Shown: positions 8,624-62,464, counted from the stretch's first letter. The stretch: DNA of 64,000 nt from an uncultured Roseivirgaceae bacterium (GCA_964551335.1 CAZKCO010000025.1:12134-76133), one strand, 5' to 3'. Notes: generated by a model not told the origin, from the sequence alone. Translations and numbers: made by a program.

Positions 8624-8679
8624 ACCAATCTGGAATAACTTCTGTTCTTGTCTTCGTAGAAACTATGTTGGAATAGATT

Positions 8680-9228
8680 ATGGTGCAAAAAATTGTGCAC
8701 AGCTTACGGCTTTTTCGTTATTGGCATCGCTGGTTAGGGCTTTTTTTACTAACCTTTATTCTCATTAGCGCCATCACCGGCATACTTCTGGCCTGGAAAA
8801 AAGAAGCTGATTTGTTGCAACCTCCTACTCAGGAATCGTCATTTATTGAATCAGAGAAACCTTGGCTCAGTGTAGAGAAGATTTGTGAGATTGCTCAAGA
8901 GGTAATTGTCCAAAACAATCCGAATCAACCATTGGCTATTGACCGATTGGATATCCGGCCGGATAAGGGTATTGTAAAAGTTCTGTTCGCCAGTTATTGG
9001 GAGGTGCAAGTTGACGGGTATTCGGGTGAGGTATTCTCCATTGCCAAACGGCATTCTGACTGGATTGAGAAAATTCACGACGGTTCAATAATCAGTGAAG
9101 GTTTTAAATTGTGGTCAATGAATACGCTTGGTATTGGTTTAATACTTCTTTCCCTTACCGGTATTTGGTTATGGTTAGGGCCTAAGCGGGTTCGTGAATT
9201 GAAGAGACAACACAAATCAACGGTTTAA
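8680..9228 (+). CDS. PepSY-associated TM helix domain protein
   Basis: HRWLGL...TGILL, IEKIHDG, LSLTGIWLW. Confidence 0.85.
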   Translation: MVQKIVHSLRLFRYWHRWLGLFLLTFILISAITGILLAWKKEADLLQPPTQESSFIESEKPWLSVEKICEIAQEVIVQNNPNQPLAIDRLDIRPDKGIVKVLFASYWEVQVDGYSGEVFSIAKRHSDWIEKIHDGSIISEGFKLWSMNTLGIGLILLSLTGIWLWLGPKRVRELKRQHKSTV

Positions 9229-9262
9229 CCGTTATCATTTAGTAGTTACCGCTAGAAAACTA

Positions 9263-9270
9263 TACTTTTG
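9263..9270 (+). promoter_or_regulatory. Bacteroidota -7 promoter element (TACTTTTG)
   Basis: Matches TAnnTTTG. It overlaps the ORF-track TTG start, implying the real start is ATG 9289. Confidence 0.5.
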
Positions 9271-9288
9271 CGTGAATTTAAACCGCTT

Positions 9289-9825
9289 ATGAATCGAACA
9301 ATTTTTCTATTTCTCAGCTTTGTTGGATTGATGTTTATTTTTCAGCAATGTGCTCCTTCTAAGACTATATCTACGCAAAAATCAGAAGATTACGAAGAAG
9401 ACATCAGCCGCTACCGCATACAGTATACCGATTCCATTGCCCAGACTACAGCTACCGATGATTCGGTAGTATCTAATCCGGAAGAGAGAGTCATGGTATC
9501 TACTTTGGAAACACCATACTCGGTAACTGAAGATATGTCTGAATTTTTTCAGGCGGTAGATGATTTGAACCGAGAGCGCAATGAATACCAGGGGTTTACC
9601 CTACAGGTTTACGCTGGTAATAGCCGCGAGCAGGCAAATGAGGCCAAATTAAAGGTATACGATGCCCTACCCGATTCCGAGCCAAAAGTAGCTTTTAATA
9701 CTCTTTTTCGTGTGCGCGTTGGTGAGTACAATGACCGCCTGGAAGCCCAAGAAGACTATATCGCCCTCAAACAGGTGTTCCCCAATGTTCTATTCGTACC
9801 CGCTACTTTCCGGGTAGTTAATTAA
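9289..9825 (+). CDS. SPOR-domain lipoprotein
   Basis: Lipobox FQQC; C-terminal GFTLQVYAG...FRVRVG SPOR motif. Confidence 0.85.
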   Translation: MNRTIFLFLSFVGLMFIFQQCAPSKTISTQKSEDYEEDISRYRIQYTDSIAQTTATDDSVVSNPEERVMVSTLETPYSVTEDMSEFFQAVDDLNRERNEYQGFTLQVYAGNSREQANEAKLKVYDALPDSEPKVAFNTLFRVRVGEYNDRLEAQEDYIALKQVFPNVLFVPATFRVVN

Positions 9826-9834
9826 TCGCATTCT

Positions 9835-11031
9835 ATGTCACTGCGAGATCGTATTCAGTACCTGGCCCGGGAACGCGCGGATCAGGTCATAGGCTTTCGT
9901 CGCCATTTGCACCAGCACCCCGAGCTTTCTTTTCAGGAATATAACACAGCCCGCTACGTTGCCGAACAGCTTAGCGCTTTCGGCCTGTCCCCCCAAACCG
10001 GGATTGCTGATACCGGTATAGTAGCTACTATCGAGGGAAAGAATCCTACCAGAAAAACAGTTGCCCTGCGTGCCGATATGGACGCCTTACCGATTCATGA
10101 GGCCAATAATGTGCCCTATAAATCGCAGAATGAAGGCGTTATGCACGCCTGTGGCCACGATGTTCATACATCTTCCCTGTTGGGTACTGCTTACATTTTG
10201 CAGCAACTTAGAGAAGAATTTGAAGGTACTGTTAAGTTGATCTTTCAGCCGGGCGAAGAGCGCTTTCCAGGGGGGGCTTCGCTAATGATTAAAGAAGGAG
10301 TATTGGAAAACCCCAAACCCGACAGTATGCTGGGTCAGCACGTATTGCCGCATCTTCCAGTAGGGAAGGTAGGCTTTCGGGAGGGGATGTATATGGCAAG
10401 TGCCGACGAAATCTACCTGACTATCCGTGGAAAAGGAGGACACGGGGCCATGCCAGAAAATAATATTGATCCAGTGATGATTACTGCCCAGGTGCTGGTT
10501 ACACTGCAGCAAATCATCAGCCGGTCGGCCAATCCTAAAATTCCGTCTGTCCTTTCCTTTGGTAAAGTGATTGCCGAGGGAGCTACCAATGTTATTCCGA
10601 ATGAGGTTTACGTAGAAGGTACTTTCCGCACTTTAAACGAAGAGTGGCGACACAGGGCTCACCAAAAAATCAGGCAAATTGTAAACGGTGTTTGTGAGAG
10701 CTTAGGAGGCTCAGCTGAGGTGGATATTAAAGTCGGCTATCCCTACTTACAAAATAATCCGGAGCTCACCCTGAGAACAAAACAGGCGGCAATAGAGTAT
10801 CTGGGAGAAGAAAACGTGGTAGATCTTGACTTATGGATGGCGGCTGAAGATTTTGCCTATTACACCCACCATATGAGTGCCTGCTTTTATCGTCTGGGGA
10901 CCGGTAATGAAGCCAAAGCAATAACTTCCGGAGTGCATACCCCTACCTTTGATATTGACGAACAGGCCCTGGAAATCGGACCGGGACTCATGAGTTGGCT
11001 TACTATTTCTGAACTGGCAACAATTGGTTAG
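9835..11031 (+). CDS. M20D family amidohydrolase
   Basis: HPELSFQE, RADMDALP, MHACGHD, FQPGEE, EDFA, HTPTF. Confidence 0.92.
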   Translation: MSLRDRIQYLARERADQVIGFRRHLHQHPELSFQEYNTARYVAEQLSAFGLSPQTGIADTGIVATIEGKNPTRKTVALRADMDALPIHEANNVPYKSQNEGVMHACGHDVHTSSLLGTAYILQQLREEFEGTVKLIFQPGEERFPGGASLMIKEGVLENPKPDSMLGQHVLPHLPVGKVGFREGMYMASADEIYLTIRGKGGHGAMPENNIDPVMITAQVLVTLQQIISRSANPKIPSVLSFGKVIAEGATNVIPNEVYVEGTFRTLNEEWRHRAHQKIRQIVNGVCESLGGSAEVDIKVGYPYLQNNPELTLRTKQAAIEYLGEENVVDLDLWMAAEDFAYYTHHMSACFYRLGTGNEAKAITSGVHTPTFDIDEQALEIGPGLMSWLTISELATIG

Positions 11032-11171
11032 ATGTTCAGGATATAGGCAATATTAATCAGTAATAATAAGCCTAAAAGTAGCCAATACATAAGGCGAGCG
11101 CGTTTGGATGGCTTGCCAAATAGTAGGTAATGAAACCCGTATTTCGCGCGATGTTCGTAGGGAGTTTTCAT
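11028..11171 (-). CDS. Putative 47-aa membrane protein
   Basis: Manual translation MKTPYEHRAKYGFHYLLFGKPSKRARLMYWLLLGLLLLINIAYILNI*: basic N-terminus plus one TM helix; fills the gap exactly. Confidence 0.45.
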   Translation of the reverse strand: MKTPYEHRAKYGFHYLLFGKPSKRARLMYWLLLGLLLLINIAYILNI

Positions 11172-45677: not shown

Positions 45678-47006
45678 TTAATTAGTAAACCGAATGAAGG
45701 CAAACATCTGCCATTGAAAATAAAGGTTATTGAGAAAGACCAAAGTCAGAAATAACGCTAGTAAGGAATTGGCTTGAATCTGCTTCTGCCCTTGTATGAA
45801 TTTTTCCAGTCCTAAGGCGACCATAACGATCAGGAAGAATGTCCATTCACAGGCATAAAGCATAATATCATCACCATACAGAAAAAAGATTACGGCATTA
45901 GCCAGCAAACTCACAATTGTAATTTTCACAATTGGTGAGTTAAACAACCGGTATTTTATAATGGCCCAAGTGGCTAGACCCAGAATTGCTGTCCAGATTA
46001 GAAGTCCCGGCCAGGCTATTGCGGGATAATCTAGTAAATTACTTTCTCGGAAAGAAACTAAAAGTATATCCGGGTTCCGTAGGTGCTGTACCAGTTTAGG
46101 CAGAGGCGCTAGTATATTAAAATAAAAAAGGTGCTCGCCGAGGTTTATCAGCTTGACTCCCGCTTCCGTGAACGTTTCGGGCAAGAAAAGGTACTGGATG
46201 TCCTTCAGAGGTTCTCTAGGACGAGACAGTAACCAGAAGTTTAGTGCTACCTTCTGAATAACTACCAACCCCAGAAACAAGGCCACCGACTGAGCCAGGA
46301 ACTTGACAATGAACGTTTGTTTCGATCGACTCTTTACATCACTCCACCGAGGTAGCCATTGGCCGTTGCTTCCCTTTATTAGCTTAGCGTAAGTTATAGC
46401 GATGACAATAAATGCGGCATTCACGAGGTTTATCCCGACTAAATACACCGATATTATAGCCCAAACCCATACTGGCGGCTTACGCACCACCGCAATCAGC
46501 AGCGCAATAAGTCCGGCAGCCGAAAAAATATAGGTGTCAGGTATGGTAGAAAATATCAGGTTGGTCGATGTTAATCCAAACAGGCCGGCGTAAAGTAGGC
46601 TTCGGGGCCAAGGTACAGCCAGTTGGTAAAATAAATACGCACATCCTAGCACGCATAGTGCCCCAAATAGAGCGCAAAACAATGATGTTACTACATAAGG
46701 GTCAGAGATCACCTTATTTACCAATCTGGCAGCAGGGTTAAACATAACAGGGAAGAGGGGGTGAAAAAGAGCTCGTTTATAGTACCCCCTGGTGCTGAAT
46801 AACTTCAAAGCCAAAAACTCAGAATCAGCCTGAAAATACAGATCATTCTCATGGTAGCCTGCACCTCGGTCTCGTTCTATTGAAAGATAATGGATGCCGG
46901 TAATGAAATAAATACTGAAAAAAAGTATTGTTAATCCTGCTAAGCTAAAAATCTTATTTCGGTGATTAGAAATAAGCTTGCGAGGCGAAGTTACAGCCTT
47001 TTGCAT
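45678..47006 (-). CDS. Polytopic membrane protein, GT-C-glycosyltransferase-like
   Basis: About 10-12 TM helices with periplasmic-loop motifs HPLFP and PDTYIFS. Confidence 0.55.
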   Translation of the reverse strand: MQKAVTSPRKLISNHRNKIFSLAGLTILFFSIYFITGIHYLSIERDRGAGYHENDLYFQADSEFLALKLFSTRGYYKRALFHPLFPVMFNPAARLVNKVISDPYVVTSLFCALFGALCVLGCAYLFYQLAVPWPRSLLYAGLFGLTSTNLIFSTIPDTYIFSAAGLIALLIAVVRKPPVWVWAIISVYLVGINLVNAAFIVIAITYAKLIKGSNGQWLPRWSDVKSRSKQTFIVKFLAQSVALFLGLVVIQKVALNFWLLSRPREPLKDIQYLFLPETFTEAGVKLINLGEHLFYFNILAPLPKLVQHLRNPDILLVSFRESNLLDYPAIAWPGLLIWTAILGLATWAIIKYRLFNSPIVKITIVSLLANAVIFFLYGDDIMLYACEWTFFLIVMVALGLEKFIQGQKQIQANSLLALFLTLVFLNNLYFQWQMFAFIRFTN

Positions 47007-48284: not shown

Positions 48285-49289
48285 TTATCGCCCCAGATGG
48301 CGCTCTAACAGCTTTTGGGGAGGCACCAAAAATAAGCTAAACATCGTGAAAAAATTGGCCGAGTAGGTATAGTTTAGCGAGCCTGAGCCATCTCTTGACC
48401 GAAGGTCGGTAGAGACCGGAGTATTGAAACCCGTTTCTAATCCAAGCCATAGCCAATCGTGAATCTCCCGCTTTCCGTGTAAGCTCCACCGAACTTCGCT
48501 ACGTTCAAACTCAAATTGCTCACTCACTGCCGAAGGATAGGTTAGATGAATATTATACTCTGGCCCGTTGAGTTTAATCCCCGCTTCCAAAATATTTTTG
48601 CGGTTTTTGCTAAAGTAGCGAACATTAGCCTGTACCGGAAGCACAGATTCCATACTCCAGTGTTTATTAAATGTATGCTGATAGGCAAATAAGGGTACTA
48701 GTGACGAACCGTCAAAATCAACTCCATAAAATAATCCCAATCCGAGAATTGTGTTCGAACTCTTTCGCCAACCCAATACCGAAGCAACGGAGAAATTTAA
48801 GTACTGATTGGTATTCGGTCGATTAAAATCTCCGTTTAGCGATGCCTGCCATCGATTCAGTATAAACAGGTTACCCCGAAATGGTTTTATTAGGTAAAGT
48901 GAAGCATTTAGGCTCCGTAGAGATTTATTATGGAGTGCCTGAGAAAAATCTGAAGAACGTTCGACATTGATAAACTCAAAATCTTCATCGTAATAGGTTA
49001 GAGAACCAAATGCTTTGAAGCCCGGACGAAGTACCAACGGGGCCCTTAGGCTTATTGAAATGCTGCTGTTATCCTGAATGATGAGGTCGTCTCCATTAGA
49101 AGCCCGCATGCGATAACTTCCTGAACGGTACCGCTGAATATTAAAAAAAGTAGGACGAGGCTGATTGTCTAGACTGGTTTTACAAAAACTGCTTAATTTT
49201 GAACTAGGCCCTGCCTGCCCCGAGCATAGGCTGTTCAACCCAAACAGGAAGATGCAAAGAAGCCCACAAAAACAACCAGTTGGCATCAA
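48285..49289 (-). CDS. Outer-membrane beta-barrel protein (DUF6268-like)
   Basis: Signal peptide and alternating amphipathic beta-strands with aromatic girdle. Confidence 0.7.
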   Translation of the reverse strand: MMPTGCFCGLLCIFLFGLNSLCSGQAGPSSKLSSFCKTSLDNQPRPTFFNIQRYRSGSYRMRASNGDDLIIQDNSSISISLRAPLVLRPGFKAFGSLTYYDEDFEFINVERSSDFSQALHNKSLRSLNASLYLIKPFRGNLFILNRWQASLNGDFNRPNTNQYLNFSVASVLGWRKSSNTILGLGLFYGVDFDGSSLVPLFAYQHTFNKHWSMESVLPVQANVRYFSKNRKNILEAGIKLNGPEYNIHLTYPSAVSEQFEFERSEVRWSLHGKREIHDWLWLGLETGFNTPVSTDLRSRDGSGSLNYTYSANFFTMFSLFLVPPQKLLERHLGR

Positions 49290-49468: not shown

Positions 49469-50581
49469 ATGCAAACCTGCCAGACCAACAACATACTAAT
49501 TTATCTTCTGTTAAATACATTTCTGCTCTCATCTTGCCGTAATCTTGCTCCCTTAGATGCTAATTATCCCACGAATCCGATAGCCCAAGAAACACCAGCT
49601 TACCGGGATAAGCAAGGTACCGTAATTATAGATATCTCGCTGCTTTCAGATCGGCTTACACTACCGGTTGCTGTGTACCACGGCTACTCCCCCGAGCAGA
49701 TCAACCTCACTCAGCCTATTGGGATGACCCACCACTACACTTTTCTCTGGAAACCGGAAGACGAAGCTTATCAACATTTTTTCACCCTGGTGGACACCAC
49801 TGGAAAAGAAGTAACTATTGCCGAACGGAGAATTCACTTCAAGGGTACCGATAATACCCGAGATCTGGGCGGATACCGCACAAAAGATGGGCGAACCGTC
49901 CGTTGGGGAAAACTTTACCGCTCAGATGATCTCAGCAACCTGACCAAGTCTGACTGGAACTACTGGAAGAATGTTGGCATCCGCACCGTTATTGATTTTC
50001 GTGAACCAGAGGCTCTGGAAAGAAAGCCGGACAATCTACCGCAAAACAATTCACCCAGAGTTCGCCACCTGTCAGTTTATGACACGGCTACTACTCGTAA
50101 GGAGTATAGACAACTACTTCAAAAGACTCAGCCTGATGAATATAATACCGAACAAATTCTAGTTGACAACAATGAGCTCTACGTAAAACAATACACTGAT
50201 AGCTTTGCTTTGGCAATTCAGGAAGTCCTTGTACAAGACGAGCCGTTACTTTACCACTGTTCAGCAGGTAAAGACCGTACCGGTTTTATGAGTGCCATGC
50301 TGCTGCTAACGCTGGGTGTACCCAAAGAAACGATCATGCGAGATTATATGGCGTCCAATTATTACCGGCAGAAACGCATTAGAAAAAGAGCGAATTTAGG
50401 CCCATTGATCGGAATCAACCCTTACACTTCCTTGCCTTTACTAGAAGTTCGTCCCATATATTTGGAAACAGCATTTCGTACCATAGAAGAACAGTACGGT
50501 TCTCTGGACAACTATATCCGGGAAGGATTGGGGATTTCCGAGGCAGAACAGGAAAAATTCCGTCAGGAATATCTATTTTAG
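49469..50581 (+). CDS. Cys-based protein-tyrosine/phosphoinositide phosphatase lipoprotein (IphP/MptpB-like)
   Basis: Lipobox LSSC; NTRDLGG, LYRS, IDFR, HCSAGKDRTG P-loop, DYMASN. Confidence 0.9.
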   Translation: MQTCQTNNILIYLLLNTFLLSSCRNLAPLDANYPTNPIAQETPAYRDKQGTVIIDISLLSDRLTLPVAVYHGYSPEQINLTQPIGMTHHYTFLWKPEDEAYQHFFTLVDTTGKEVTIAERRIHFKGTDNTRDLGGYRTKDGRTVRWGKLYRSDDLSNLTKSDWNYWKNVGIRTVIDFREPEALERKPDNLPQNNSPRVRHLSVYDTATTRKEYRQLLQKTQPDEYNTEQILVDNNELYVKQYTDSFALAIQEVLVQDEPLLYHCSAGKDRTGFMSAMLLLTLGVPKETIMRDYMASNYYRQKRIRKRANLGPLIGINPYTSLPLLEVRPIYLETAFRTIEEQYGSLDNYIREGLGISEAEQEKFRQEYLF

Positions 50582-50585
50582 TGTC

Positions 50586-51755
50586 ATGCGCTCAACAACT
50601 ACTGCCGTCAGCATACCTAAAAAAGCCGCTCAATTAGTGGAATCCGAATTTGGTAGACATGATACCAGCTCTTTGTTTTACCATAATTTGAAACACACCA
50701 AAGAGGTTGTGACTGCCGTTCGTACTATTGGTGAAGGTTGTCAGCTTAGTCAGCCGGAATTGGATATTTTGGTTACTGCAGCCTGGTTTCACGATGTCGG
50801 TCATCTGTACCCTAACGAAGACCCCATTCCAGTTAGCGTAAAGTTTGCTCAGGACTTTCTTTCTAAGGAAAATGCTTCACCCGAGTTTATAGAACAGGTG
50901 ATAGGTTGCATTAGAGCAACTGATATGCCTCAAAAACCTCAGGGCTTATTACAAGAGATTATTTGCGATGCCGACATGGCTCACTTGGCGGGTAAGGACT
51001 ATGAATTTTGGGCCGAAGCTCTTCGTAAGGAACGCAAACTCATATCTAGCAAAAAGATTAAAAGAGAGAAGTGGAATGCTGAGAACCTTAAGTTCTTCAA
51101 AAATCACCACTACTTTACTGATTTTGCAGAAGAGCACTTTGGTCCCGGAAAAAACAAGAACTATCTCTCTCTTAAGGCTAACCTAGCAACTCGAAAGAAA
51201 AAAACGACTAAAAAATCCAAGGTCCCTAAAGGCGGCGAAGTCATGTATCGAATTGTGATGCGTACGCATATGGACCTGAGCGCCATAGCTGATACAAAAG
51301 CCAATATCATGATCTCTGTTAATGCCATATTGTTATCAATACTGGTTACGGTGCTCTTTCGTCGTATTGAGGAATATACTGCCTACTGGTTGCCTGGAGT
51401 TATTTTAACAATGGTTTGTTTGCTGACTATTGTGTTCGCCATTTTAGCAACACTACCTCAGGTAACCCAAGGAAGATTCCGTAAAGAGGATGTCATGAAA
51501 AACCGGGCCAACCTGCTGTTCTTTGGCAACTTCTACAATATGACCCGTGATGACTTTGAGTGGGGAATGCAGATGATCCGGCAAAACGATGATCTGGCCT
51601 ACGGTAGTCTCACGCGTGACTTGTACAATCTTGGTCGGGTTCTAGCCCGAAAATACAAAATGTTGCGGGTTTCCTATCTAATCTTTGTAGTCGGACTGGT
51701 AGTTTCAATAATTTCGTTTATCGCAGTTGCTTTAGGCAAAGTCAATGTGATGTAG
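50586..51755 (+). CDS. HD-domain phosphohydrolase fused to a Pycsar-effector-like (PycTM/DUF5706) membrane domain
   Basis: YHNLKHT, AWFHD, CDADMAHL; then ADTKANIMISVN, 2 TM, NLLFFGNF, KYKMLR and a final TM. Confidence 0.85.
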   Translation: MRSTTTAVSIPKKAAQLVESEFGRHDTSSLFYHNLKHTKEVVTAVRTIGEGCQLSQPELDILVTAAWFHDVGHLYPNEDPIPVSVKFAQDFLSKENASPEFIEQVIGCIRATDMPQKPQGLLQEIICDADMAHLAGKDYEFWAEALRKERKLISSKKIKREKWNAENLKFFKNHHYFTDFAEEHFGPGKNKNYLSLKANLATRKKKTTKKSKVPKGGEVMYRIVMRTHMDLSAIADTKANIMISVNAILLSILVTVLFRRIEEYTAYWLPGVILTMVCLLTIVFAILATLPQVTQGRFRKEDVMKNRANLLFFGNFYNMTRDDFEWGMQMIRQNDDLAYGSLTRDLYNLGRVLARKYKMLRVSYLIFVVGLVVSIISFIAVALGKVNVM

Positions 51756-51793
51756 CAAATCCCATTTTGCCGGTTTCTTAATAGATTAACAAT

Positions 51794-54700
51794 ATGATTC
51801 GGTATGCCTTCTCACTTTTATTTTTGATAGGTCAATACTACTCTGCTACGGCTCAGACCACCCAAGCTGACACTGTAGAATTTAGCCTGTTTTTTCTTGG
51901 AAATACGGCTGATCCAGCCAACGAAATTTCAGAGTCCACTCTCGCTTTATTACAGCAGAAACTTCAGACGGTTGATCATCCCGCTACCCTGCTACTTCTC
52001 GGTGATAATGCTAGTTCGGTAGGTTTACCCGACCGCGAAGAAGCTGAATATCAAGTGGCAGAAAATCGACTTCTATCTCTGCTTAATATTTCAGAAAATT
52101 TTAATGGACAGGTGATTTTTACTCCTGGCGACCGGGACTGGGATCATGGCGGACAAAATGGTTTGACTTACATCTTAAATCAAGGAAACTATCTGGAGTC
52201 TCAGGGAAGTGATCAGGTGCTCTTCCTTCCGGGTGGAGGCTGCCCAGGCCCTTACGAAATTTCCCTGAGTGAAAATATTATATTGGTGGTCATTGATACT
52301 CAGTGGTTTCTTCATACCGGTGATAAGCCTTTGGAATCCTCCGACTGTGGAGCCGCTTCTGTCTCCGATATTGTGGATCAGTTAGAAGACATTCTATCCC
52401 GAAATAAGGATAAACATATTGTCGTAGCGACTCATCACCCCATCTATTCCTATGGACCTAGAGGGGGGCGTTCTCCACTCAAGTATCATTTGTTTCCGTT
52501 CACTGCCCTCTCCGATCCCTTGTATATACCTTTGCCCCTGGTAGGCTCTCTTTATCCGTTATATCGAACTTTGGGAATAAACACCCAAGATCAACACCAT
52601 TATCGCTACCAGATACTTCGTAAATCCCTAGACAAAATTTTAGACCGTGACCATGCCTTGGTGCACATTTCCAGCCACGAGCGCTCCCTCCAGCATATCC
52701 GCCGAGGTAACAACGATTACATTGTCAATGGAGCATTTTCTGAAGCCACTTATGTAAAACAACATCAGAACACGCAATTTGCTGCCTCCAAAATTGGGTT
52801 TGGAGAAATTAAATTCTACCGAAATGGCTCGGCAGAATTACTATTCTGGAACAGTAGCCAGCCAGACCAGCCTCTGCACCAGCAGGCTTTACTAACCACA
52901 TTTTCTCCTTCTACCCAAATTGTTAATCAACTCAATCTAGATTACAGCGATAGTACAATAACTCGAGAAGCCAATACTAAGTATCTGGCAAGCAATAGTA
53001 AAATTAAGTTTTACGGAAATAACTACCGCACCGAATGGAGCCTGCCGACTACTTTCTCCTATTTTGATATCGGAAAAGAGAAAGGTGGTCTTGAAGTAGT
53101 AAAACGAGGCGGAGGCGGACAAACTTTGTCTCTTCGGCTGGAAGCCAAAGACGGCCGACAATACGTTCTCCGTTCAGTGGATAAATACCCCGAACGAAAT
53201 ATTCCACCGTCATTATCCAGTCCGTTCATCAACACGGTGTTGGGTGAAGTGATTTCTGCTTCTCATCCCTACGCTGCCCTGGCTATTCCGCCTATGGCTG
53301 ATGCCATTGGAGTGTACCATACTAACCCCAAAATTGTCTATATCCCCGACGACCCTCGGCTGGGACAGTACCGAGGCACCCACGCCAACACATTGGCTTT
53401 ATTTGAGGAGAGGCCGGATGATGACTGGTCGGACGCTGAATATTTCGGGAGTTCCGAAGATATTGAGAGCACGCCCAAGATGCTGAAGGATTTACGGGAG
53501 GATAACGACAATGAGGTAGATCAGCACTTTTATCTCAAGTCCCGGCTGTTTGACCTGATTATTGGTGACTGGGACCGGCATGCCGACCAATGGCGATGGT
53601 CTACGCAGGAGAAGGATACCAGCGACGGACGAATCTTCCGTCCGATTCCTCGCGACCGAGACCAAGCTTTTTTTGTCAACGAGGGCTTCTTCCCTAGCCT
53701 AGCCTCTCAAAATTTCGTTCTCCCGCCCATTCAAGGTTTTGATGCTGAAGTGCGGGATGTAACCCGGCAGTGGGTAGCCATGGTTCAATATCTGGACCGT
53801 CGGTTGCTAAATAACCTATCCTACGAAGATTGGAAATCAATAGTAGACGAAATACAGCGCAGGTTAACCGATGAAGCTATTCAGACCGGAGTTAATCGAA
53901 TACCTGATACGGTATTTCAGGTTTCGGGGTCAAAAATTATTGAGAATTTAAAACAACGACGCGACGACTTGGAAAAATACGCTCGAACCTACTATCAGTT
54001 TCTTTCCGAAAGTGTAGACGTGGTTGGCAGTGATAATAAAGAGCGTTTCCAAGTTGAAAGGTTAGATAATGAGCGGACTCGAGTGGTAGTGCATAAGTTG
54101 AGTAAAAACAAGGAGAGGGTAGAACAAAAACTCTTCGACCGCATCTTTTACACCAATGAAACCAAGGAGATTCATCTGTACGGCTTGGGCGACGACGATG
54201 ATTTTATCGTTAGTGGAACTACTGAGTTAGGCATAAAACTCAGGATTATTGGGGGTGAAGGAAAGGATGAAATTACCGACCGCTCTTCAGTAAATGGATT
54301 CTCAAAGAAAACTTTAGTCTACGATACACCCGAGGGAGTAACACTGAATTCAGGGCCCGAAACTAAGAAAAAACTTTCGCGGAAAAGTGAAGTAAATCGT
54401 TACGACTGGGGAAGTTTTAAGTATAACTATTTCAGTCCATTAATAACTGCATCTTACAATCAGGACGACGGCATTTTTCTGGGTGGAGGGTTTTTGTATA
54501 AACATCAGGGCTTCCGTAAGTTGCCTTTTGCCAGTAAACATAGCCTTTCGGCTAGCTACGCTTTTGCTACCAGCGCCTTCAACGTTGCTTACAGCGGTGA
54601 GTTTACCGATGTTATCGGGCGTTCTGATCTCCTAGTAGACTTAGATTTTAAGGCCCCTAATTACGTTAACAATTACTTCGGGTTAGGCAACGAATCAGTT

Positions 54701-55540
54701 TATGATCCTGACCTACAGGACATAGATTTTTATCGGTACCGGTTTAAGGAATACGATGTAAGCGCGTTACTAAAGACCAACCTGACCCCCTACCAGTATC
54801 TGGCAGTGGGTCCAGTATACCGCAGTATTGTGGTACAGGCTACTGAAGATCGCTTTATAACTGACTTTCCCAACAATGGGCTTGACCCGGAAACTGTATT
54901 CGACTGGCATGAATACGCCGGAGTTCGGCTGCAGTATGAGTTGAACCGGCTGAACAATTTTACTCCTCTCCGGAACAGCGGAAACGGGGGGCTGGGTGGT
55001 GCGCTGGCTAATTTACAGCAAAATAGCCTACCAACCCGAGGGGTTTTCTGGCAGGTAAACGCCGATTTGTTAGACGGGCTAAACAGTGTATCCCCGGAGT
55101 TTTCCCAGCTATCTTCCAGTTTTACATATTTATGGAGCACCCGCGCCCCCTCAGTACTTACTCTGGCTGCCAGAATCGGGGGTGGTCATATCTTCAGTAA
55201 AGATTTCAGGTTTTTTCAAGCTCAACGGCTAGGAGGATTGACCAACCTGAGAGGCTATCGGCGTACTCGCTTCTACGGCCGTAGTAGCTTTTACAGCAAC
55301 CTGGAATTCCGCCTCCGAGTAGCTCAGTTTCGAACGTACTTTTTTCCAGTGTACTTTGGGGTGATCGGATTTAACGACATCGGTCGGGTTTGGCAAGATC
55401 AGGAAAGCTCTCAGGTGTGGCATCACGGTTACGGAGGTGGAATTTACCTGGCTCCGTTTAACGCTCTAGTATTCTCCGCCGTGTGGGGCTTTTCGGCAGA
55501 AGACAGCTTGCCTATCTTTAAGTTAGGCTACTTCTTCTAG
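51794..55540 (+). CDS. Multi-domain outer-membrane protein: calcineurin-like phosphoesterase, kinase-like domain and Omp85/BamA-TamA barrel
   Basis: GDN, GDRDW, HHPI, SHE motifs; GGGGQT...LFDLIIGDWDRH...RDRDQAF; NLRGY loop; C-terminal LGYFF. Confidence 0.8.
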   Translation: MIRYAFSLLFLIGQYYSATAQTTQADTVEFSLFFLGNTADPANEISESTLALLQQKLQTVDHPATLLLLGDNASSVGLPDREEAEYQVAENRLLSLLNISENFNGQVIFTPGDRDWDHGGQNGLTYILNQGNYLESQGSDQVLFLPGGGCPGPYEISLSENIILVVIDTQWFLHTGDKPLESSDCGAASVSDIVDQLEDILSRNKDKHIVVATHHPIYSYGPRGGRSPLKYHLFPFTALSDPLYIPLPLVGSLYPLYRTLGINTQDQHHYRYQILRKSLDKILDRDHALVHISSHERSLQHIRRGNNDYIVNGAFSEATYVKQHQNTQFAASKIGFGEIKFYRNGSAELLFWNSSQPDQPLHQQALLTTFSPSTQIVNQLNLDYSDSTITREANTKYLASNSKIKFYGNNYRTEWSLPTTFSYFDIGKEKGGLEVVKRGGGGQTLSLRLEAKDGRQYVLRSVDKYPERNIPPSLSSPFINTVLGEVISASHPYAALAIPPMADAIGVYHTNPKIVYIPDDPRLGQYRGTHANTLALFEERPDDDWSDAEYFGSSEDIESTPKMLKDLREDNDNEVDQHFYLKSRLFDLIIGDWDRHADQWRWSTQEKDTSDGRIFRPIPRDRDQAFFVNEGFFPSLASQNFVLPPIQGFDAEVRDVTRQWVAMVQYLDRRLLNNLSYEDWKSIVDEIQRRLTDEAIQTGVNRIPDTVFQVSGSKIIENLKQRRDDLEKYARTYYQFLSESVDVVGSDNKERFQVERLDNERTRVVVHKLSKNKERVEQKLFDRIFYTNETKEIHLYGLGDDDDFIVSGTTELGIKLRIIGGEGKDEITDRSSVNGFSKKTLVYDTPEGVTLNSGPETKKKLSRKSEVNRYDWGSFKYNYFSPLITASYNQDDGIFLGGGFLYKHQGFRKLPFASKHSLSASYAFATSAFNVAYSGEFTDVIGRSDLLVDLDFKAPNYVNNYFGLGNESVYDPDLQDIDFYRYRFKEYDVSALLKTNLTPYQYLAVGPVYRSIVVQATEDRFITDFPNNGLDPETVFDWHEYAGVRLQYELNRLNNFTPLRNSGNGGLGGALANLQQNSLPTRGVFWQVNADLLDGLNSVSPEFSQLSSSFTYLWSTRAPSVLTLAARIGGGHIFSKDFRFFQAQRLGGLTNLRGYRRTRFYGRSSFYSNLEFRLRVAQFRTYFFPVYFGVIGFNDIGRVWQDQESSQVWHHGYGGGIYLAPFNALVFSAVWGFSAEDSLPIFKLGYFF

Positions 55541-57145: not shown

Positions 57146-60100
57146 CTACCGGATAATTACCTTACCACTCATTGTTTCTTCTTGATTGCGTTGTACTCGG
57201 TAGATATAAAGTCCGTTTGGAACCAGTTGGCCCTGAAGATCGGCACCACTCCATCGCAGGGTATGATAGCCTGAAGTCAGATTTTCGCTTACTATCGCTA
57301 CCCTTTGGCCTGTAGTATTATAAATACTAACTGATACACTCGCTGAAGTTTCTCCACGGGGCACCGAAACTGGAATAAATAGCTGACCGGAGCTGGGGTT
57401 GGGAAAAGGGTTTCCTACCAGAAACTGGTCAGGTTGCATAGCCTCTCGTATGTCGCTGTAGGTACCATAATACAACCGGAATTTTCTCTTTCCGGTAGCA
57501 GCATTGAACTGGTAGCTGCTGTTTTCCCGCAGGTTAATCTGGGCTAAAGTCTCCAAATCAAGAAGTACGAGCTGATAGTCGTTCTCCCCAAACGAACGAT
57601 TATCCCAGTTGATGGTAACGTTAGACGCTTCAGGAGATGCTACCTCAAAATCCCATACGTAGGACAGCTGGGTAGGAACAATGTCCTGAGTTAGGCCGGC
57701 AACTGCTAACTCGGGATGGGGAAAATTCAGCTCCAGTGAGTTATAGAAGCGGGGTGGAGTCAGATTATCGAACCGATCACCGGATACTTGAGCACCGGGA
57801 TGCATACCTACTCCACCCAGTTGGTACGACTGGTTTTCTGATTCAAGATTCAGAGGTAAGTACCAGGAGTCACTATCCAGAGCAGTATCAAATTGGTTTT
57901 TGGTATCGGTAGAACCAATCCGAGCGTTCGTATTCACCGGAATTTGCAGGGTAACCGCCCCACTAATCCCCAAAGCCTCCACAAAGCCTCCCTCAAATTT
58001 AGCCAAACTAGTTTCACCGGTAACCCAGCCCCTACCTTTTTTCCATTTTAACAGCGTAGCATCTACCTCACCGGAGCCAATCACTCCTAAACTCTCATTA
58101 TGCGCAATAATATCACTCCAATCAATATCAAATAAGTACGGATTACCGATCAGGTTAAAACCAGGCTGCAGGGTGATCGGTATGGAGTTTTCGGTAAGAT
58201 TGACTGTCTTTCCATTGAGCTCTATCTGCTCCGAAAAATCCCGGTAAGCAAACATGTACCCTACTCCCGGATCAAAATTGTTGAACCCTGACTGAAATTC
58301 CTGATAGACCTGATTGGCCGCCGAATACCGGAACAATACCCATTTTCCTGAATTATCAGATTTATAAGTTTCTAACTCGTCGAATGCTTCACTCACCGAT
58401 TGGGGTTGCAGTGGTATTGAGATCATTTGATAGTCATTTTCCGTGGGATTCTCCGGATCGGATGCGGGTGAAACTCCGGTAAGAAATAGAGAAGAAAATG
58501 ATCGGTTGATTTGATTGCGGCCAGATTCAGTGCGGTTACCTGCCTTATCAAATGCTTCTACGTAAAACTCTAGTCCCACTTCCTGATCATCAAATATTGC
58601 GTTCAGCTCGGACAACGGCACGGTCACTTGGTAGATATCATTACTCTGCAATTCCAGCGTCAGAGAATTAAAATCATTCTCACGAAACCCTCTATAAAAT
58701 AACTTCACTGATTGCTCATCAACCCCAGAACCACCTTCATTATCAGTGACTACCGCGGCTAGGACAACCTCATTACCCACTTCATATTCCTGAATAAAGG
58801 AGTTAATAGAAATTGTCGGTGGCTCTGAATCCACTACATTAACTACTCTAAAGGTACCTACCTCCACCGGGGTTCCCCCAATTACAATACTAATTGGATA
58901 AGATTGATCAACTGGTAGACCATCGGGCACGGTGAAAGTAATCTGAGTAGCATTCTGTGAATCAGGTGTTATTGAAACGCCATTGAACTGTAATCCAACA
59001 TCGTTTAGAAACCTTCCTGTGAGAGTAACTTTCGTTTCAGTCTTTCCTTCTTCCGGACTGATATTATCTACGGTAGGCACCGGATCATCAACGATCTGTA
59101 TTTGTGTTTCATACTCTATCGCTTCCCCTCCTTCAGGCGTAACGGTCAGTGTATATTCTCCGGGATCCAGTGGTGGTACCATAATTCGGATTAAGGTTCC
59201 TTCAGCGTTGACACTCTCAATAGAAACAACAGTCTCTCCGAGACTCACCGCTGGATTAGCCCCAAATCCCCCACCCTCGATAACTATCTCGATTCCGACC
59301 GTCACATTCTGTACGGGATTGACTTGACTAATAAAAGGCCCAGGGGCTTCAATAATGTCAATCTTGGTTCCGAAGACAATGGGTTCCTCACCCTCAGGAG
59401 TGACGGTGACCGTATATTCGGCCGGGTCTAGTTCAGGGACGATGATACGTATCTCGGTCCCCGCTTCGTTAACACTTTCAACGGCAACCGTAGTCTCCTC
59501 CAGACTTACGGCAGGATTTGAACCAAACCCGCCTCCTTCTATAAGAATTTCTGTTCCAACAGTAACATCTTCCACCGGACTAACCCGGCTAATGAAAGGG
59601 TCCGGTGGTTCTTGTCCTACTAGGAAATTGTCAAATTGAGCGAGATTACCATTGGGTAGCCTTACTTGAACATTTAGAAATCCATCAGCAACTTCAGGAA
59701 TTACCACTTCAAGCTGCGTTCCTTTAGAAAACACACCAGTGACTACGGCTTCGGTATCACCGAAAAATACCTGGGCAGTTCCAATGATAGACCCAAAATT
59801 ACCACCATAAATCTGGATAATATTTCCCGGGTCCCCTTGCGTAGTATCCAGTCCACTAATGAGAGGGCTTGGAGAACTCTGAATAATGTTGGTCAGGGAA
59901 AATACCAGATTGGTTTCTTCAATCTCAAATTCTTCGTCTTCTGCGTATGCGACTATCAAATCTTGATCACCATCGTTATCTATGTCATCGGATTGAATGG
60001 TATTGGGCTGTCCTTTGGTTACTGTAACCAATGTTTCTTTGGTAAAACTGAAACTTCCGTCGTTTTTAAACCAATCAACTCGTCCATCTTGCAAGAGAGG

Positions 60101-62464
60101 ACCATCGTTTTCTGATCCAACGAGGATATCCATATCTCCATCACCATCAAGATCGGTAGCATCTACCGAAAAGGGCTGGGCAGTTTGGCCAATATTCTGA
60201 GGGGTATTAAAGTTACCGTCGCCCAAATTCTCGATCAACGTAATATTACCGTTTTCGTTAGAAATGACAACAATGTCAAGGTCGCGGTCTCCGTCAAAAT
60301 CAGCTAAAGCCGCCCCACGGGGGCTATCCACCTGACTTTCGTTAGCGATAACAACCGGATTGGCAAAGTTGCCACTCCCTAAATTACGGTAAAACAGAAC
60401 CTGGTCTTCATCAGAACCTCCATCTAAAGCGTCTTTATCACGTAGCACTACTACCAAATCAGGCAGATCATCGTCATTCAAATTACCAACCTCCACTGCC
60501 CGGGGACGCCCGTCAGTTTCATCTATTTCAATATCATTGGGAAATTTTCCTCCCTGATTTTTAAAGAAGATGATATTTTGATTGAAAAAATTAGTAAGTA
60601 CAATATCGGCATTACCATCACTGTCTAGATCACCAGCATATACATCACTGCTTCCGGCATATTCATCGGTAATGTCAATTGGAGATGAAAAATTACCGTT
60701 ACCCTGGTTGCGATACCAAACTAGTTCGCTTCCTTCGTTTGGATCATCAGTCAAGACAATATCAGGACCATTAGAATTGTCTAGATCAGCGATAGCAATT
60801 GCCCTTGGGTCTTCCAAATCATTTTCCAAAGAGGTTCCACTCGAGAAAGTACCATCATTATTTTGGTAGATTTTGATGGCACTACCGTCTTTAAAAGCCA
60901 CAGCCAAATCCAAATCTCCATCTGCGTCAAAATCAGCGGTACCCACATCACGACCGCCTTGAGTAACTGATTCTACCTTTTGAGAAGTGAATTTATCATT
61001 GATGACGATCTCAATAGTCTCATCAGACACCTCCGAGAACTGGACCAGATTACTATTTTTTGAATTTTGATCGCCATTATCTCGATCCCAGTCTCGAAAA
61101 CCGGCAACATATACCTGCCCTGAGGAGGTAGCATTTACTGCAAGTCCGTAATCCAGATTGTTGCTCCCAAATCGTTTCACGAAGGAAGGCTCACTAATGT
61201 CTAGTGGGAAAACTGCAAGAAACTCGTCGGCATTGTTATTATTAGTTACTGCGTCGAAGAAGCGATCATCCCCCACATCTTTAGAAAGGCTAGTTATTCT
61301 TCCGGTTACGTACACCTGTCCATCCTGAATCACAACATCAAAACCCTGTTCAAAGCTGTCGTCATCTGTTCCACCCACTTGATACACATCCTCGAAACTA
61401 CCAGTTAGTGAATATTTCGCTAAAAAGAAATCATAATCTGATTCAGCAGACCTACTACCTCCACTGCCACCAGGGTTAAAATTTACGCTTCTTCGGAAAT
61501 CGCCGGTAATGAAGAAAGAGTTGCTACCAATAACCAGGCTGCGCGACCGGTCATCCTCCTGAGCTCCAAAAGAGAACGCGAAGTCAAAATCTCCGTCACT
61601 TACATTATATTTAGCGGCAAATGCATCCCGACTTCCATTACTAGACTCTGATCCTGCTCCTGGAAATGTCAGGGTTCCAGAAAACTCACCCGTAATAAAA
61701 ACGTTCCCTTGAGCATCGGTATCTATCCCCTGAGAACGCACATCGCCGTTGCCCGTAGCTACCTCTGCTTCGATAAGATTATTCAGGTTTTTATCAAAAA
61801 CAAAAATAAACAGTCCATCTTCCGGAGCGATAGCATCAAATGGGGAAACCGGGGGATTAAAGCTACCCGAAAAAAGTTCTACTGAATTTTCATAGTAGCC
61901 AGTGATATACACATTGCCATTACTATGTACCGCAATCCCCTGCCCCCGCTCATTATCAGCTGAAGAAGACTGGATTCTTTTCTGAAAGGTTAAGTCGGAT
62001 GCGGTGAGCATAGCCAGGTAAATATCCACGTCATCACCGTCTTCGCCTCGACCATGACCGATTATATATACTAAAGATTCGTCGGCACTTAAGGCAATGT
62101 CCTGGGCCTGATCGTTGAACCCTTTGTAATCCAGTTGCTCGGTAGCCAAAAGTTCGCCGGAAGGGCTGTATTTGGCAACATAGATATCGGTATTAATATC
62201 ATCTGGAGCTGAATTGGCGTCTACGGCTGTGAGTAAACCGGCGTTTGATCCTTCGGGGTCCAGGTTAATAGTTCCACTGAACCAGCCTACAATGTATATA
62301 TTTCCTTCACTGTCGGTAACTACTCCCGTAGCCTCGTCTTCGCGATTACCACCCTGATTGGTAAATATCCACTCATCGGTAATTTCCAGGTCCTGACTGT
62401 ACCCTGTTAGCGGCCAAAGGCCGACTAACATAAACATACTCAGAGCAAGGTTATGTATTTTCAT
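57146..62464 (-). CDS. Large T9SS-secreted protein: beta-propeller repeats, FG-GAP/VCBS repeats, IPT/TIG domains, C-terminal T9SS/FlgD-Ig domain
   Basis: Signal peptide; repeated DxDxDGDxD motifs; four IPT/TIG-like units; FPNPSS...IYNTTGQ...W.G.D....V.NGLYIY CTD. Confidence 0.88.
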   Translation of the reverse strand: MKIHNLALSMFMLVGLWPLTGYSQDLEITDEWIFTNQGGNREDEATGVVTDSEGNIYIVGWFSGTINLDPEGSNAGLLTAVDANSAPDDINTDIYVAKYSPSGELLATEQLDYKGFNDQAQDIALSADESLVYIIGHGRGEDGDDVDIYLAMLTASDLTFQKRIQSSSADNERGQGIAVHSNGNVYITGYYENSVELFSGSFNPPVSPFDAIAPEDGLFIFVFDKNLNNLIEAEVATGNGDVRSQGIDTDAQGNVFITGEFSGTLTFPGAGSESSNGSRDAFAAKYNVSDGDFDFAFSFGAQEDDRSRSLVIGSNSFFITGDFRRSVNFNPGGSGGSRSAESDYDFFLAKYSLTGSFEDVYQVGGTDDDSFEQGFDVVIQDGQVYVTGRITSLSKDVGDDRFFDAVTNNNNADEFLAVFPLDISEPSFVKRFGSNNLDYGLAVNATSSGQVYVAGFRDWDRDNGDQNSKNSNLVQFSEVSDETIEIVINDKFTSQKVESVTQGGRDVGTADFDADGDLDLAVAFKDGSAIKIYQNNDGTFSSGTSLENDLEDPRAIAIADLDNSNGPDIVLTDDPNEGSELVWYRNQGNGNFSSPIDITDEYAGSSDVYAGDLDSDGNADIVLTNFFNQNIIFFKNQGGKFPNDIEIDETDGRPRAVEVGNLNDDDLPDLVVVLRDKDALDGGSDEDQVLFYRNLGSGNFANPVVIANESQVDSPRGAALADFDGDRDLDIVVISNENGNITLIENLGDGNFNTPQNIGQTAQPFSVDATDLDGDGDMDILVGSENDGPLLQDGRVDWFKNDGSFSFTKETLVTVTKGQPNTIQSDDIDNDGDQDLIVAYAEDEEFEIEETNLVFSLTNIIQSSPSPLISGLDTTQGDPGNIIQIYGGNFGSIIGTAQVFFGDTEAVVTGVFSKGTQLEVVIPEVADGFLNVQVRLPNGNLAQFDNFLVGQEPPDPFISRVSPVEDVTVGTEILIEGGGFGSNPAVSLEETTVAVESVNEAGTEIRIIVPELDPAEYTVTVTPEGEEPIVFGTKIDIIEAPGPFISQVNPVQNVTVGIEIVIEGGGFGANPAVSLGETVVSIESVNAEGTLIRIMVPPLDPGEYTLTVTPEGGEAIEYETQIQIVDDPVPTVDNISPEEGKTETKVTLTGRFLNDVGLQFNGVSITPDSQNATQITFTVPDGLPVDQSYPISIVIGGTPVEVGTFRVVNVVDSEPPTISINSFIQEYEVGNEVVLAAVVTDNEGGSGVDEQSVKLFYRGFRENDFNSLTLELQSNDIYQVTVPLSELNAIFDDQEVGLEFYVEAFDKAGNRTESGRNQINRSFSSLFLTGVSPASDPENPTENDYQMISIPLQPQSVSEAFDELETYKSDNSGKWVLFRYSAANQVYQEFQSGFNNFDPGVGYMFAYRDFSEQIELNGKTVNLTENSIPITLQPGFNLIGNPYLFDIDWSDIIAHNESLGVIGSGEVDATLLKWKKGRGWVTGETSLAKFEGGFVEALGISGAVTLQIPVNTNARIGSTDTKNQFDTALDSDSWYLPLNLESENQSYQLGGVGMHPGAQVSGDRFDNLTPPRFYNSLELNFPHPELAVAGLTQDIVPTQLSYVWDFEVASPEASNVTINWDNRSFGENDYQLVLLDLETLAQINLRENSSYQFNAATGKRKFRLYYGTYSDIREAMQPDQFLVGNPFPNPSSGQLFIPVSVPRGETSASVSVSIYNTTGQRVAIVSENLTSGYHTLRWSGADLQGQLVPNGLYIYRVQRNQEETMSGKVIIR
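59081..59602 (-). repeat. Two tandem, highly similar ~87-aa IPT/TIG units inside the T9SS protein
   Basis: PFIS.V.PV..VTVG.EI.IEGGGFG.NPAVSL.ET.V..ESVN..GT.IRI.VP.LDP.EYT.TVTPEG occurs twice. Confidence 0.85.

Follow-up and report, generated by a model that had tools for sequence, protein, structure and literature searches.

What joins a lipid-anchored phosphatase, an inner-membrane hydrolase and an outer-membrane barrel with a kinase-like domain, all encoded head to tail in one bacterial genome? The question is raised by positions 49,469 to 55,540 of a 64,000-nucleotide stretch of DNA from an uncultured Roseivirgaceae bacterium (GCA_964551335.1 CAZKCO010000025.1:12134-76133; hereafter the window, with positions counted from its first letter), where the original prediction, made from the sequence alone, had proposed a three-gene envelope module of phospho-transfer proteins. 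The open reading frame (ORF) coordinates agree with that prediction in giving three co-directional genes separated by 4 bp (first and second) and 38 bp (second and third), and sequence and models predict that the first product is a lipoprotein, that the second lies in the inner and the third in the outer membrane, and that all three have a phosphoryl-handling fold. The genes and the parts of their products are as follows.

49469-50581, plus strand: gene 1, protein tyrosine phosphatase (PTP) lipoprotein (P0001, 370 amino acids; ORF call), comprising a signal peptide (residues 1-22), Cys23, an extra N-terminal domain (24-120) and a Y_phosphatase3 domain (122-369)

50255..50284, plus strand: catalytic P-loop of the PTP, HCSAGKDRTG, residues 263-272 with Cys264 and Arg270 (read from the translation)

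50586-51755, plus strand: gene 2, HD-PycTM protein (P0002, 389 amino acids; ORF call)

50586..51209, plus strand: predicted cytoplasmic HD phosphohydrolase domain, residues 1-208 (Pfam HD, AlphaFold2 (AF2) model)

51228..51752, plus strand: PycTM membrane domain of the pJV1-spdB3 family with three transmembrane helices (3TM), residues 215-389 (Pfam, PADLOC, hydropathy and model)

51794-55540, plus strand: gene 3, outer-membrane protein (OMP; P0003, 1248 amino acids; ORF call)

51794..52903, plus strand: signal peptide (residues 1-21, cleaved between ATA and Q) and decayed purple acid phosphatase-like (PAP-like) domain, residues 22-370 (family alignment)

52991..54013, plus strand: protein-kinase-like (PKL) domain, residues ~400-740 (AF2 and Foldseek; not in Pfam)

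54014..54373, plus strand: all-beta linker, residues 741-860 (secondary structure of the model; no POTRA fold)

54374..55540, plus strand: Omp85-type beta-barrel, residues 861-1248, with the loop-6 motif NLRGYRR at 1151-1157 (NCBIfam and profile)

A single operon of the three genes in the window is plausible from their arrangement, and a scan of both gaps found no terminator-like hairpin. Scans for promoters and terminators returned counts at the level of shuffled sequence, with a sigma-70 consensus that is unsuited to Bacteroidota.

We consider it probable, with a fair measure of confidence, that the window locus is a derived, compacted and rearranged lineage-specific copy of a conserved Bacteroidota envelope gene set, whose core is the HD/3TM inner-membrane protein together with the PAP/PKL/Omp85 outer-membrane protein. 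The evidence is comparative, drawn from 29 loci of relatives, 80 taxonomically diverse loci, 61 genomes of relatives and 16 genomes of the genus. Of the 29 relatives' loci, 17 have an HD-PycTM homologue no further than ~1-3 kb from the OMP gene, in every orientation. Among the diverse loci, which span Cytophagales, Chitinophagales, Sphingobacteriales, Marinilabiliales and others, the two genes are adjacent in 61 of 80, with nothing or a propeller gene alone between them in 54 of these 61. Full-length HD-PycTM is present in all 24 relatives that carry the OMP and in one of the 37 that do not (Fisher p = 4e-16, for genomes that are phylogenetically non-independent); that one OMP-less genome is 84% complete. 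The HD-PycTM and OMP genes thus move as a pair, through gains and losses alike. The layout of the pair varies, HD-PycTM being divergent from the OMP gene in most loci, and a tight tandem like that of the window recurs in only 3 of 80 other loci. The OMP family is large, with over 4000 clusters that bear only the names ‘BamA/TamA family outer membrane protein’ or ‘metallophosphoesterase’, and its carriers number at least 598 GTDB species in Bacteroidota orders as well as Rhodothermales, Chlorobiota and Gemmatimonadota metagenome-assembled genomes (MAGs).

The inner-membrane partner matches Pfam PycTM at 2.2e-31 (108.9 bits against a cut-off of 27.2) and Pfam HD at 2.1e-5 (25.2 bits against 22), together with the PADLOC PycTM (7e-17) and 2TM effector models; a sequence search of P0002 against the PDB gave no match. 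The protein has no signal peptide, and its HD domain is followed by a Lys-rich linker and three hydrophobic helices (~238-260, 265-289 and 357-385, from hydropathy and the model); the HD domain is therefore predicted to be cytoplasmic. Its metal ligands are intact (H33, H69-D70, D128/D130) and invariant in 44 homologues including the window protein. The AF2 model has a predicted local distance difference test (pLDDT) score of 87 overall and ~97 in the all-helical HD domain, for which the closest folds are 2pq7 and YpgQ (5dqw), with TM-scores normalised to target length of 0.71-0.73, followed by PDE4 and PDE2.

The C-terminal 175 residues resemble the transmembrane effectors of Pycsar and Pucsar systems (PycTM, PucTM) in their Pfam and PADLOC matches and in their three transmembrane helices. 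That family has been described as a cylindrical hexamer and the target of a cyclic nucleotide (cNMP) made by a cyclase (bioRxiv 10.64898/2026.08.12.744502). The 3TM part is also the most conserved part of the window protein, at 91% identity to the orthologue in the closest relative (G004) as against 67% for the HD part, and with a non-synonymous divergence (dN) of 0.056 as against 0.234, a roughly four-fold difference. The two halves appear to be separable modules: they occur as separate, adjoining frames of ~200 amino acids in four genomes (G035:C6:87660-88780, G041:C4:151190-152386, G055:C98:26855-27982 and G016:C3:139120-140292), and stand-alone HD or 3TM genes were found elsewhere too.

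In the outer-membrane partner, residues ~380-860 gave no Pfam match at E<=1 and no sequence match in the PDB. The middle of the protein is nonetheless modelled as a protein-kinase-like fold with an intact active-site signature. The AF2 model of this region (pLDDT 91.5, predicted TM-score 0.91) retrieved PI4KIIalpha (4hnd, 3.5e-5) and HipA (3dnv, 3.7e-5) in Foldseek, both at probability 1.00, and then Fam20 (4kqb), Rio2 (4gyi), COQ8 and many kinases, all with modest TM-scores of 0.26-0.44. Its motifs are RGGGGQT (438-444), Lys464, a catalytic loop GDWDRHADQW (591-600) and PRDRDQAF (619-626), among which G439-G441, K464, D592/D594-R-H596, D598 and D621-R-D623 are invariant in 52 homologues; roles were assigned to these residues by analogy, not by superposition. 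Like PI4KIIalpha, HipA and other atypical enzymes of the superfamily (Fam20, Rio2), the domain thus has a predicted two-lobed fold, a Gly-rich loop, a conserved Lys, a catalytic loop of DRH type and a further Asp motif, these sequence features all being invariant in the OMP family. It differs from those enzymes in its ~12% identity, its low TM-scores, the Gln that replaces the usual Asn in DWDRHxDQW and a DRD in place of the DFG equivalent. It is also predicted to be exported and anchored in the outer membrane, where ATP has no known availability. In the genome of a Cytophagales bacterium, three stand-alone paralogues consisting of the PKL domain and beta-linker without a barrel lie in tandem (G049:C27; L143 6126-7682, minus; 7756-9378, minus; 9439-11151, plus). 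Each starts with a lipoprotein-type signal, so that the PKL fold appears to be consistently exported, and one has a degenerate loop, GDWSRRED.

Neither a Pfam search nor the model, which has an all-beta stretch at this place, gave a POTRA domain ahead of the barrel. Within this linker, two stretches (LYGLGDDDDF and IIGGEGKDEI) resemble the calcium-binding nonapeptide GGxGxD. The C-terminus is a predicted barrel of the Omp85 superfamily with the loop-6 motif of that group. NCBIfam Omp85_fam matches at 3.9e-23 over the C-terminal half of that model, with 82.6 bits, below the 200-bit full-length cut-off; the family profile matches 9ccg (1.3e-10) and the BamA barrel (1.4e-4), and PF01103 is found in most homologues. 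The closest architectural parallels are PlpD (type Vd) and the noNterm Omp85 proteins, which likewise have a C-terminal barrel of ~390 residues, an RGY loop-6 motif and an N-terminal enzyme domain. In contrast to PlpD-type proteins, the window OMP has the all-beta linker in place of POTRA, and its cargo is PAP-like and PKL rather than a patatin lipase.

The N-terminal domain tells a different story in the family and in the window. The 52-member family profile matches purple acid phosphatases (ACP5, ~1e-5) through this domain, and the family consensus has five motifs, GDxG / GDNIY / GNHD / HHP / GHEH, in line with the GDxG, GDxxY, GNH(D/E), VxxH and GHxH of these enzymes (ACP5/TRAP; also GAP50). 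In the window the motifs read GNTAD / GDNAS / GDRD / HHP / SHER, and the Pfam Metallophos match is weak (3.4e-4; 21.5 bits, exactly the cut-off). The seven-ligand set of a purple acid phosphatase is broken here, with four of seven metal ligands replaced (D to N, Y to S, N to D, H to R), which very probably leaves the domain without metallophosphatase activity. The original prediction of a joint phosphoesterase and kinase in this protein stands for the kinase fold and needs correction, in the window copy, for the phosphoesterase. Among full-length relatives in the 80 loci, the scanned motifs (four of the five, HHP not being scored) are intact in 51 of 72 and decayed in 21 of 72. The decayed window domain is probably a pseudo-enzyme, yet purifying selection still constrains it: against the 87%-identical G004 orthologue, dN reaches 0.096 in this domain and 0.06 in the remainder of the OMP, synonymous divergence (dS) from this closest relative being saturated and the dN values alone usable.

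The first gene supplies a phosphatase of another kind. The PTP has a full-length match to Pfam Y_phosphatase3 (4.5e-67; 226.9 bits against a cut-off of 22.2), and its solved relatives include 8dhi (5.6e-33) and the Mycobacterium tuberculosis PtpB (MptpB; 1ywf, 4.9e-17). With its CX5R P-loop of the form HCxAGKDRTG and its full-length domain match, it falls with the Cys phosphatases of the MptpB/IphP class. Its N-terminus runs from a hydrophobic stretch into LLSS-C23, and since a Cys follows at the same place in 22 of 22 full-length orthologues retrieved, the product is predicted to be a lipoprotein anchored at Cys23. No acidic surface-export signal follows this Cys, and the protein probably faces the periplasm. 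It is thus unlike MptpB itself, a secreted effector directed at the host, in being a putative lipoprotein with an extra N-terminal domain of ~100 residues.

This phosphatase is no part of the wider gene set. It lies next to the module in none of the 80 diverse loci, adjoins it solely in the window's genus and in the MAG GCA_021730635.1 (locus L144), and its distant orthologues (49-51% identity) are unlinked to the module. Within the genus, OMP, HD-PycTM and PTP occur together in 6 of 16 genomes and none of the three occurs in the other 10; the PTP is found only in the six module-carrying genomes and is adjacent to the module in each. The proposal of a three-gene module therefore survives as co-conservation within the genus and fails as a wider unit, the PTP being a late addition of the genus and one related MAG and usual members of the set (propeller lipoprotein, cyclase, PPK1 paralogue and SixA) being missing or unlinked in the window.

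In every PTP-linked locus, the built-in PAP domain is decayed or deleted. It is decayed in the window, in copy 1 of G004 and in GCA_021730635.1 (two of seven ligands replaced), and missing in copy 2 of G004, G008, G010, G011 and G015, where the order is PTP, PKL-barrel, propeller, HD-PycTM. Because the PTP occurs beside the module only where the PAP domain has decayed or gone, these loci suggest that the lipoprotein took over the phosphatase role of that domain, and the PTP would then supply in trans, in the periplasm, the activity lost by the barrel protein. In G004 the PTP and HD-PycTM genes end a contig, and upstream of the OMP orthologue lies a cluster-type ppk1 that is broken into two frames with an internal TGA (L031 1-1869; G004:C345). 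This ppk1 could be a pseudogene, or the break could stem from misassembly of the 530-contig genome.

Which other genes belong to the set was examined by clustering all neighbours, with the following partners counted over the 80 diverse loci.

38/80 loci: SdiA-regulated/phytase-like propeller lipoprotein, mostly directly upstream of the OMP gene

26/80 loci: six-helix membrane class III cyclase, beside HD-PycTM

25/80 loci: PPK1 (also in 8/29 of the relatives' loci)

14/80 loci: SixA-like histidine phosphatase

13/80 loci: DUF6268 protein

8/80 loci: DUF2652 (cyclase-clan) protein, beside HD-PycTM

With arrowheads giving gene direction, the commonest layout is Cyc> [PPK1>] <HD-PycTM SdiA> OMP>, and that of Hymenobacteraceae is <HD-PycTM OMP> DUF6268> <PPK1 <SixA. 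Cultivable relatives with the complete set are found in Fulvivirga, Pontibacter and Ekhidna. The propeller partner has weak phytase-like matches. The PPK1 of these clusters is a distinct paralogue, ~32% identical to the housekeeping PPK1 that is present in every genome. This second paralogue (e.g. G015:C18:33352-35460) was found in 7 of 11 module-carrying genomes and in 1 of 10 without the module, and overlaps HD-PycTM by 11 bp in L144. The gene-neighbourhood check for ppk that accompanied the original prediction thus came out positive, and gives a link to polyphosphate some support. HD-PycTM looks like the hub of the set, because it neighbours the cluster PPK1 in G033, where the OMP gene is far away, and stand-alone PAP-like genes in G023 and G031. 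A cytoplasmic protein of ~785 amino acids with no Pfam match also recurs beside HD-PycTM (L144 5145-7502, minus; L062 3377-5887; L128, L089, L081 and L104); its homologue in the window genome (C9:148002-150242, 29% identity) is unlinked.

Sorted by predicted location, the HD-3TM protein and, elsewhere, the cyclase, PPK1 and SixA form a set that faces the cytoplasm, and this is inherited with an exported set of the PTP lipoprotein, the PAP/PKL/Omp85 protein, the DUF6268 protein and, elsewhere, the propeller. The 3TM domain is the sole piece of the window set that is predicted to cross the inner membrane. A mechanism consistent with this division is that the module moves or processes phosphoryl groups between the inner and outer membranes. 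The 3TM assembly would serve in the inner membrane as a conduit or sensor gated by a nucleotide, and the HD domain would end the nucleotide signal by hydrolysis or hydrolyse another phosphorylated ligand. On the other side, the exported kinase-like and phosphatase activities would act on a phosphorylated envelope substrate. Polyphosphate made by PPK1 would be the most likely substrate and the best candidate for linking the two sides. The module as a whole would then be a housekeeping or accessory envelope system and not a Pycsar system of abortive infection.

These ideas can be carried further, to an envelope-spanning polyphosphate apparatus with a PKL kinase fuelled by polyphosphate, which as a joint reading we regard as unlikely. 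Here the dedicated PPK1 would make polyphosphate at the inner membrane, a hexameric HD-3TM would pass the polymer to the periplasm under cyclic-nucleotide control, the Omp85-anchored PKL domain would use it in place of ATP on envelope targets, and the PAP-like domain (in this genus, the PTP lipoprotein) would trim the polymer or reverse the modification. If true, this would be the first PKL-fold kinase fuelled by polyphosphate and the first route of energy-rich phosphate into the periplasm.

Several observations weigh against our interpretation of the locus and its extension to polyphosphate. The weakest point is the phosphoryl donor, as it is not obvious where an exported kinase fold would obtain ATP. 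The window genome has no adjacent cyclase and no cluster-type PPK1, only the housekeeping copy (C13:23824-25797), and its propeller gene is unlinked, on another contig (C2:2285-3160); support for the polyphosphate and cNMP parts therefore comes from other genomes. Even there, PPK1 neighbours the module in just ~30% of loci. When the 3TM domain was used as query against a library of 1.84 billion proteins, 1697 clusters matched, and the best 150 of these consisted of HD-3TM or stand-alone 3TM proteins of <=526 amino acids, with not one PPK1-PycTM fusion. PAP replacement by the PTP is no general rule, since the domain has decayed without a PTP in those 21 of 72 full-length relatives, and the eight PTP-linked loci, being related, may go back to one or two events in evolution. 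An accessory or defence function would likewise be compatible with the patchy distribution (6 of 16 genomes in the genus, 24 of 61 among relatives). Finally, the interpretation is built on genes and predicted structures.

Of the competing explanations, the one that fares best is scavenging of inorganic phosphate (Pi) in the periplasm or at the surface by the OMP phosphoesterase and the PTP, with HD-PycTM as a separate, co-regulated gene of Pho type; we rate it as improbable, to about the degree of the polyphosphate apparatus. It draws on the intact PAP motifs of most full-length relatives, on the predicted export of both phosphatases and on PPK1 and SixA among the neighbours. It sits poorly with the repeated decay or loss of the phosphatase domain while the PKL and 3TM domains remain invariant, a scavenger having no need of a kinase fold or of a cytoplasmic HD-3TM protein. 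Moreover, the recurrent neighbours at the 80 loci include no Pi transporter or PhoBR pair.

An anti-phage system similar to Pycsar or Pucsar, in which a cyclase signal opens the PycTM pore and aborts infection with the OMP as accessory sensor or effector, is less probable still, and we give it only a slim chance. Beyond the PycTM domain itself, it would account for the patchy occurrence in the genus, for a weak PADLOC match of PDC-M03A on the PKL catalytic loop and for the cyclases of relatives, often the next gene to HD-PycTM, which match PADLOC PycC models at 1e-21 to 1e-24. Matches of this strength would be expected of any class III cyclase, however, and the relatives' cyclases, each with a membrane domain of six helices, are in many cases oriented convergently to HD-PycTM rather than co-operonic. 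The window holds the PycTM-type effector domain with no adjacent cognate cyclase: none lies near positions 48-57 kb of the window, and the genome's closest cyclase homologues, which other contigs carry, do not exceed 33% identity. The domain also departs from Pycsar effectors in being fused to an N-terminal HD hydrolase and in its linkage to the OMP and to housekeeping-type genes (PPK1, SixA, pyrR/pyrB), in a synteny that is conserved vertically and stable across families, e.g. in Pontibacter and Rufibacter.

The original prediction had also raised inositol lipids, and a phosphoinositide circuit, in which a PI4KII-like kinase writes and an MptpB-like phosphatase erases phosphates on envelope lipids, now appears very improbable. 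In its favour are the best fold match of the PKL domain (PI4KIIalpha), the MptpB class of the PTP and the phytase-like matches of the propeller. Against these, HipA, Fam20 and Rio2 match the PKL domain about equally at the same modest TM-scores, and no inositol-lipid genes were seen among the recurrent neighbours of the 29 and 80 loci. The hypothesis was rejected on the distribution of inositol-1-phosphate synthase (MIPS), which is absent from the 100%-complete window genome and does not co-occur with the module in the genus, being present in 2 of 6 genomes with it and in 6 of 10 without.

Chance adjacency of three unrelated envelope genes, the least credible explanation, might be read into the rarity of the tandem layout and into G004, where the ppk1 remnant and not HD-PycTM precedes the OMP orthologue, but is excluded by the comparative data, which contradict it with phyletic co-occurrence and with adjacency in many orientations across orders.

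The individual folds described here are known; the gene set as a system has no described counterpart. We found no literature on the HD-PycTM family, the PAP-PKL-Omp85 architecture or the linkage of the two, although a 2026 preprint on PKL domains of oral bacteria may cover the kinase-like domain; Heinz & Lithgow 2014 do not mention the architecture. The set occurs in Bacteroidota and neighbouring phyla, in some 600 species at the least, and would equip the periplasm or outer membrane with both a phosphatase and a kinase-like enzyme and couple them to an inner-membrane protein built on a pore domain known only from phage defence. This would be a non-defence, housekeeping-type use of the PycTM domain, which matters for annotation, as NCBI names such proteins ‘Pycsar system effector’. 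If the kinase fold is active, the question becomes how phosphoryl donors reach the periplasm, and the PPK1 paralogue that recurs at these loci suggests an answer open to testing. What the window adds is the pairing of a decayed PAP domain with a recruited PTP lipoprotein, along with the negative result on inositol lipids. It amounts to a natural experiment: with the built-in phosphatase dead or deleted and a different phosphatase fold adjoining, it points to phosphatase activity, and not the PAP fold as such, as what the system needs.

One further gene of the window is probably an accessory member of the module.

48285..49289, minus strand: predicted outer-membrane protein of the DUF6268 type (Pfam DUF6268, 1.3e-5), divergent from the PTP gene

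Homologues of this gene lie within the module in G015, both G004 copies and L144, in addition to the 13 diverse loci listed above, and with it the window layout reads <DUF6268 PTP> HD-PycTM> OMP>. The module is flanked by genes of housekeeping type, GguC on one side and, across a gap of 85 bp, pyrR-pyrB on the other. Upstream of the GguC (AraD1 family) gene lies an ORF of 442 amino acids (45678-47006, minus strand), which gave no Pfam or NCBIfam match at E<=1. Just downstream of pyrB, and outside the module, 57146-62464 (minus strand) encodes a 1772-residue FG-GAP/TIG-repeat protein with a C-terminal sorting domain of the type IX secretion system, which is predicted to be secreted or displayed at the surface.

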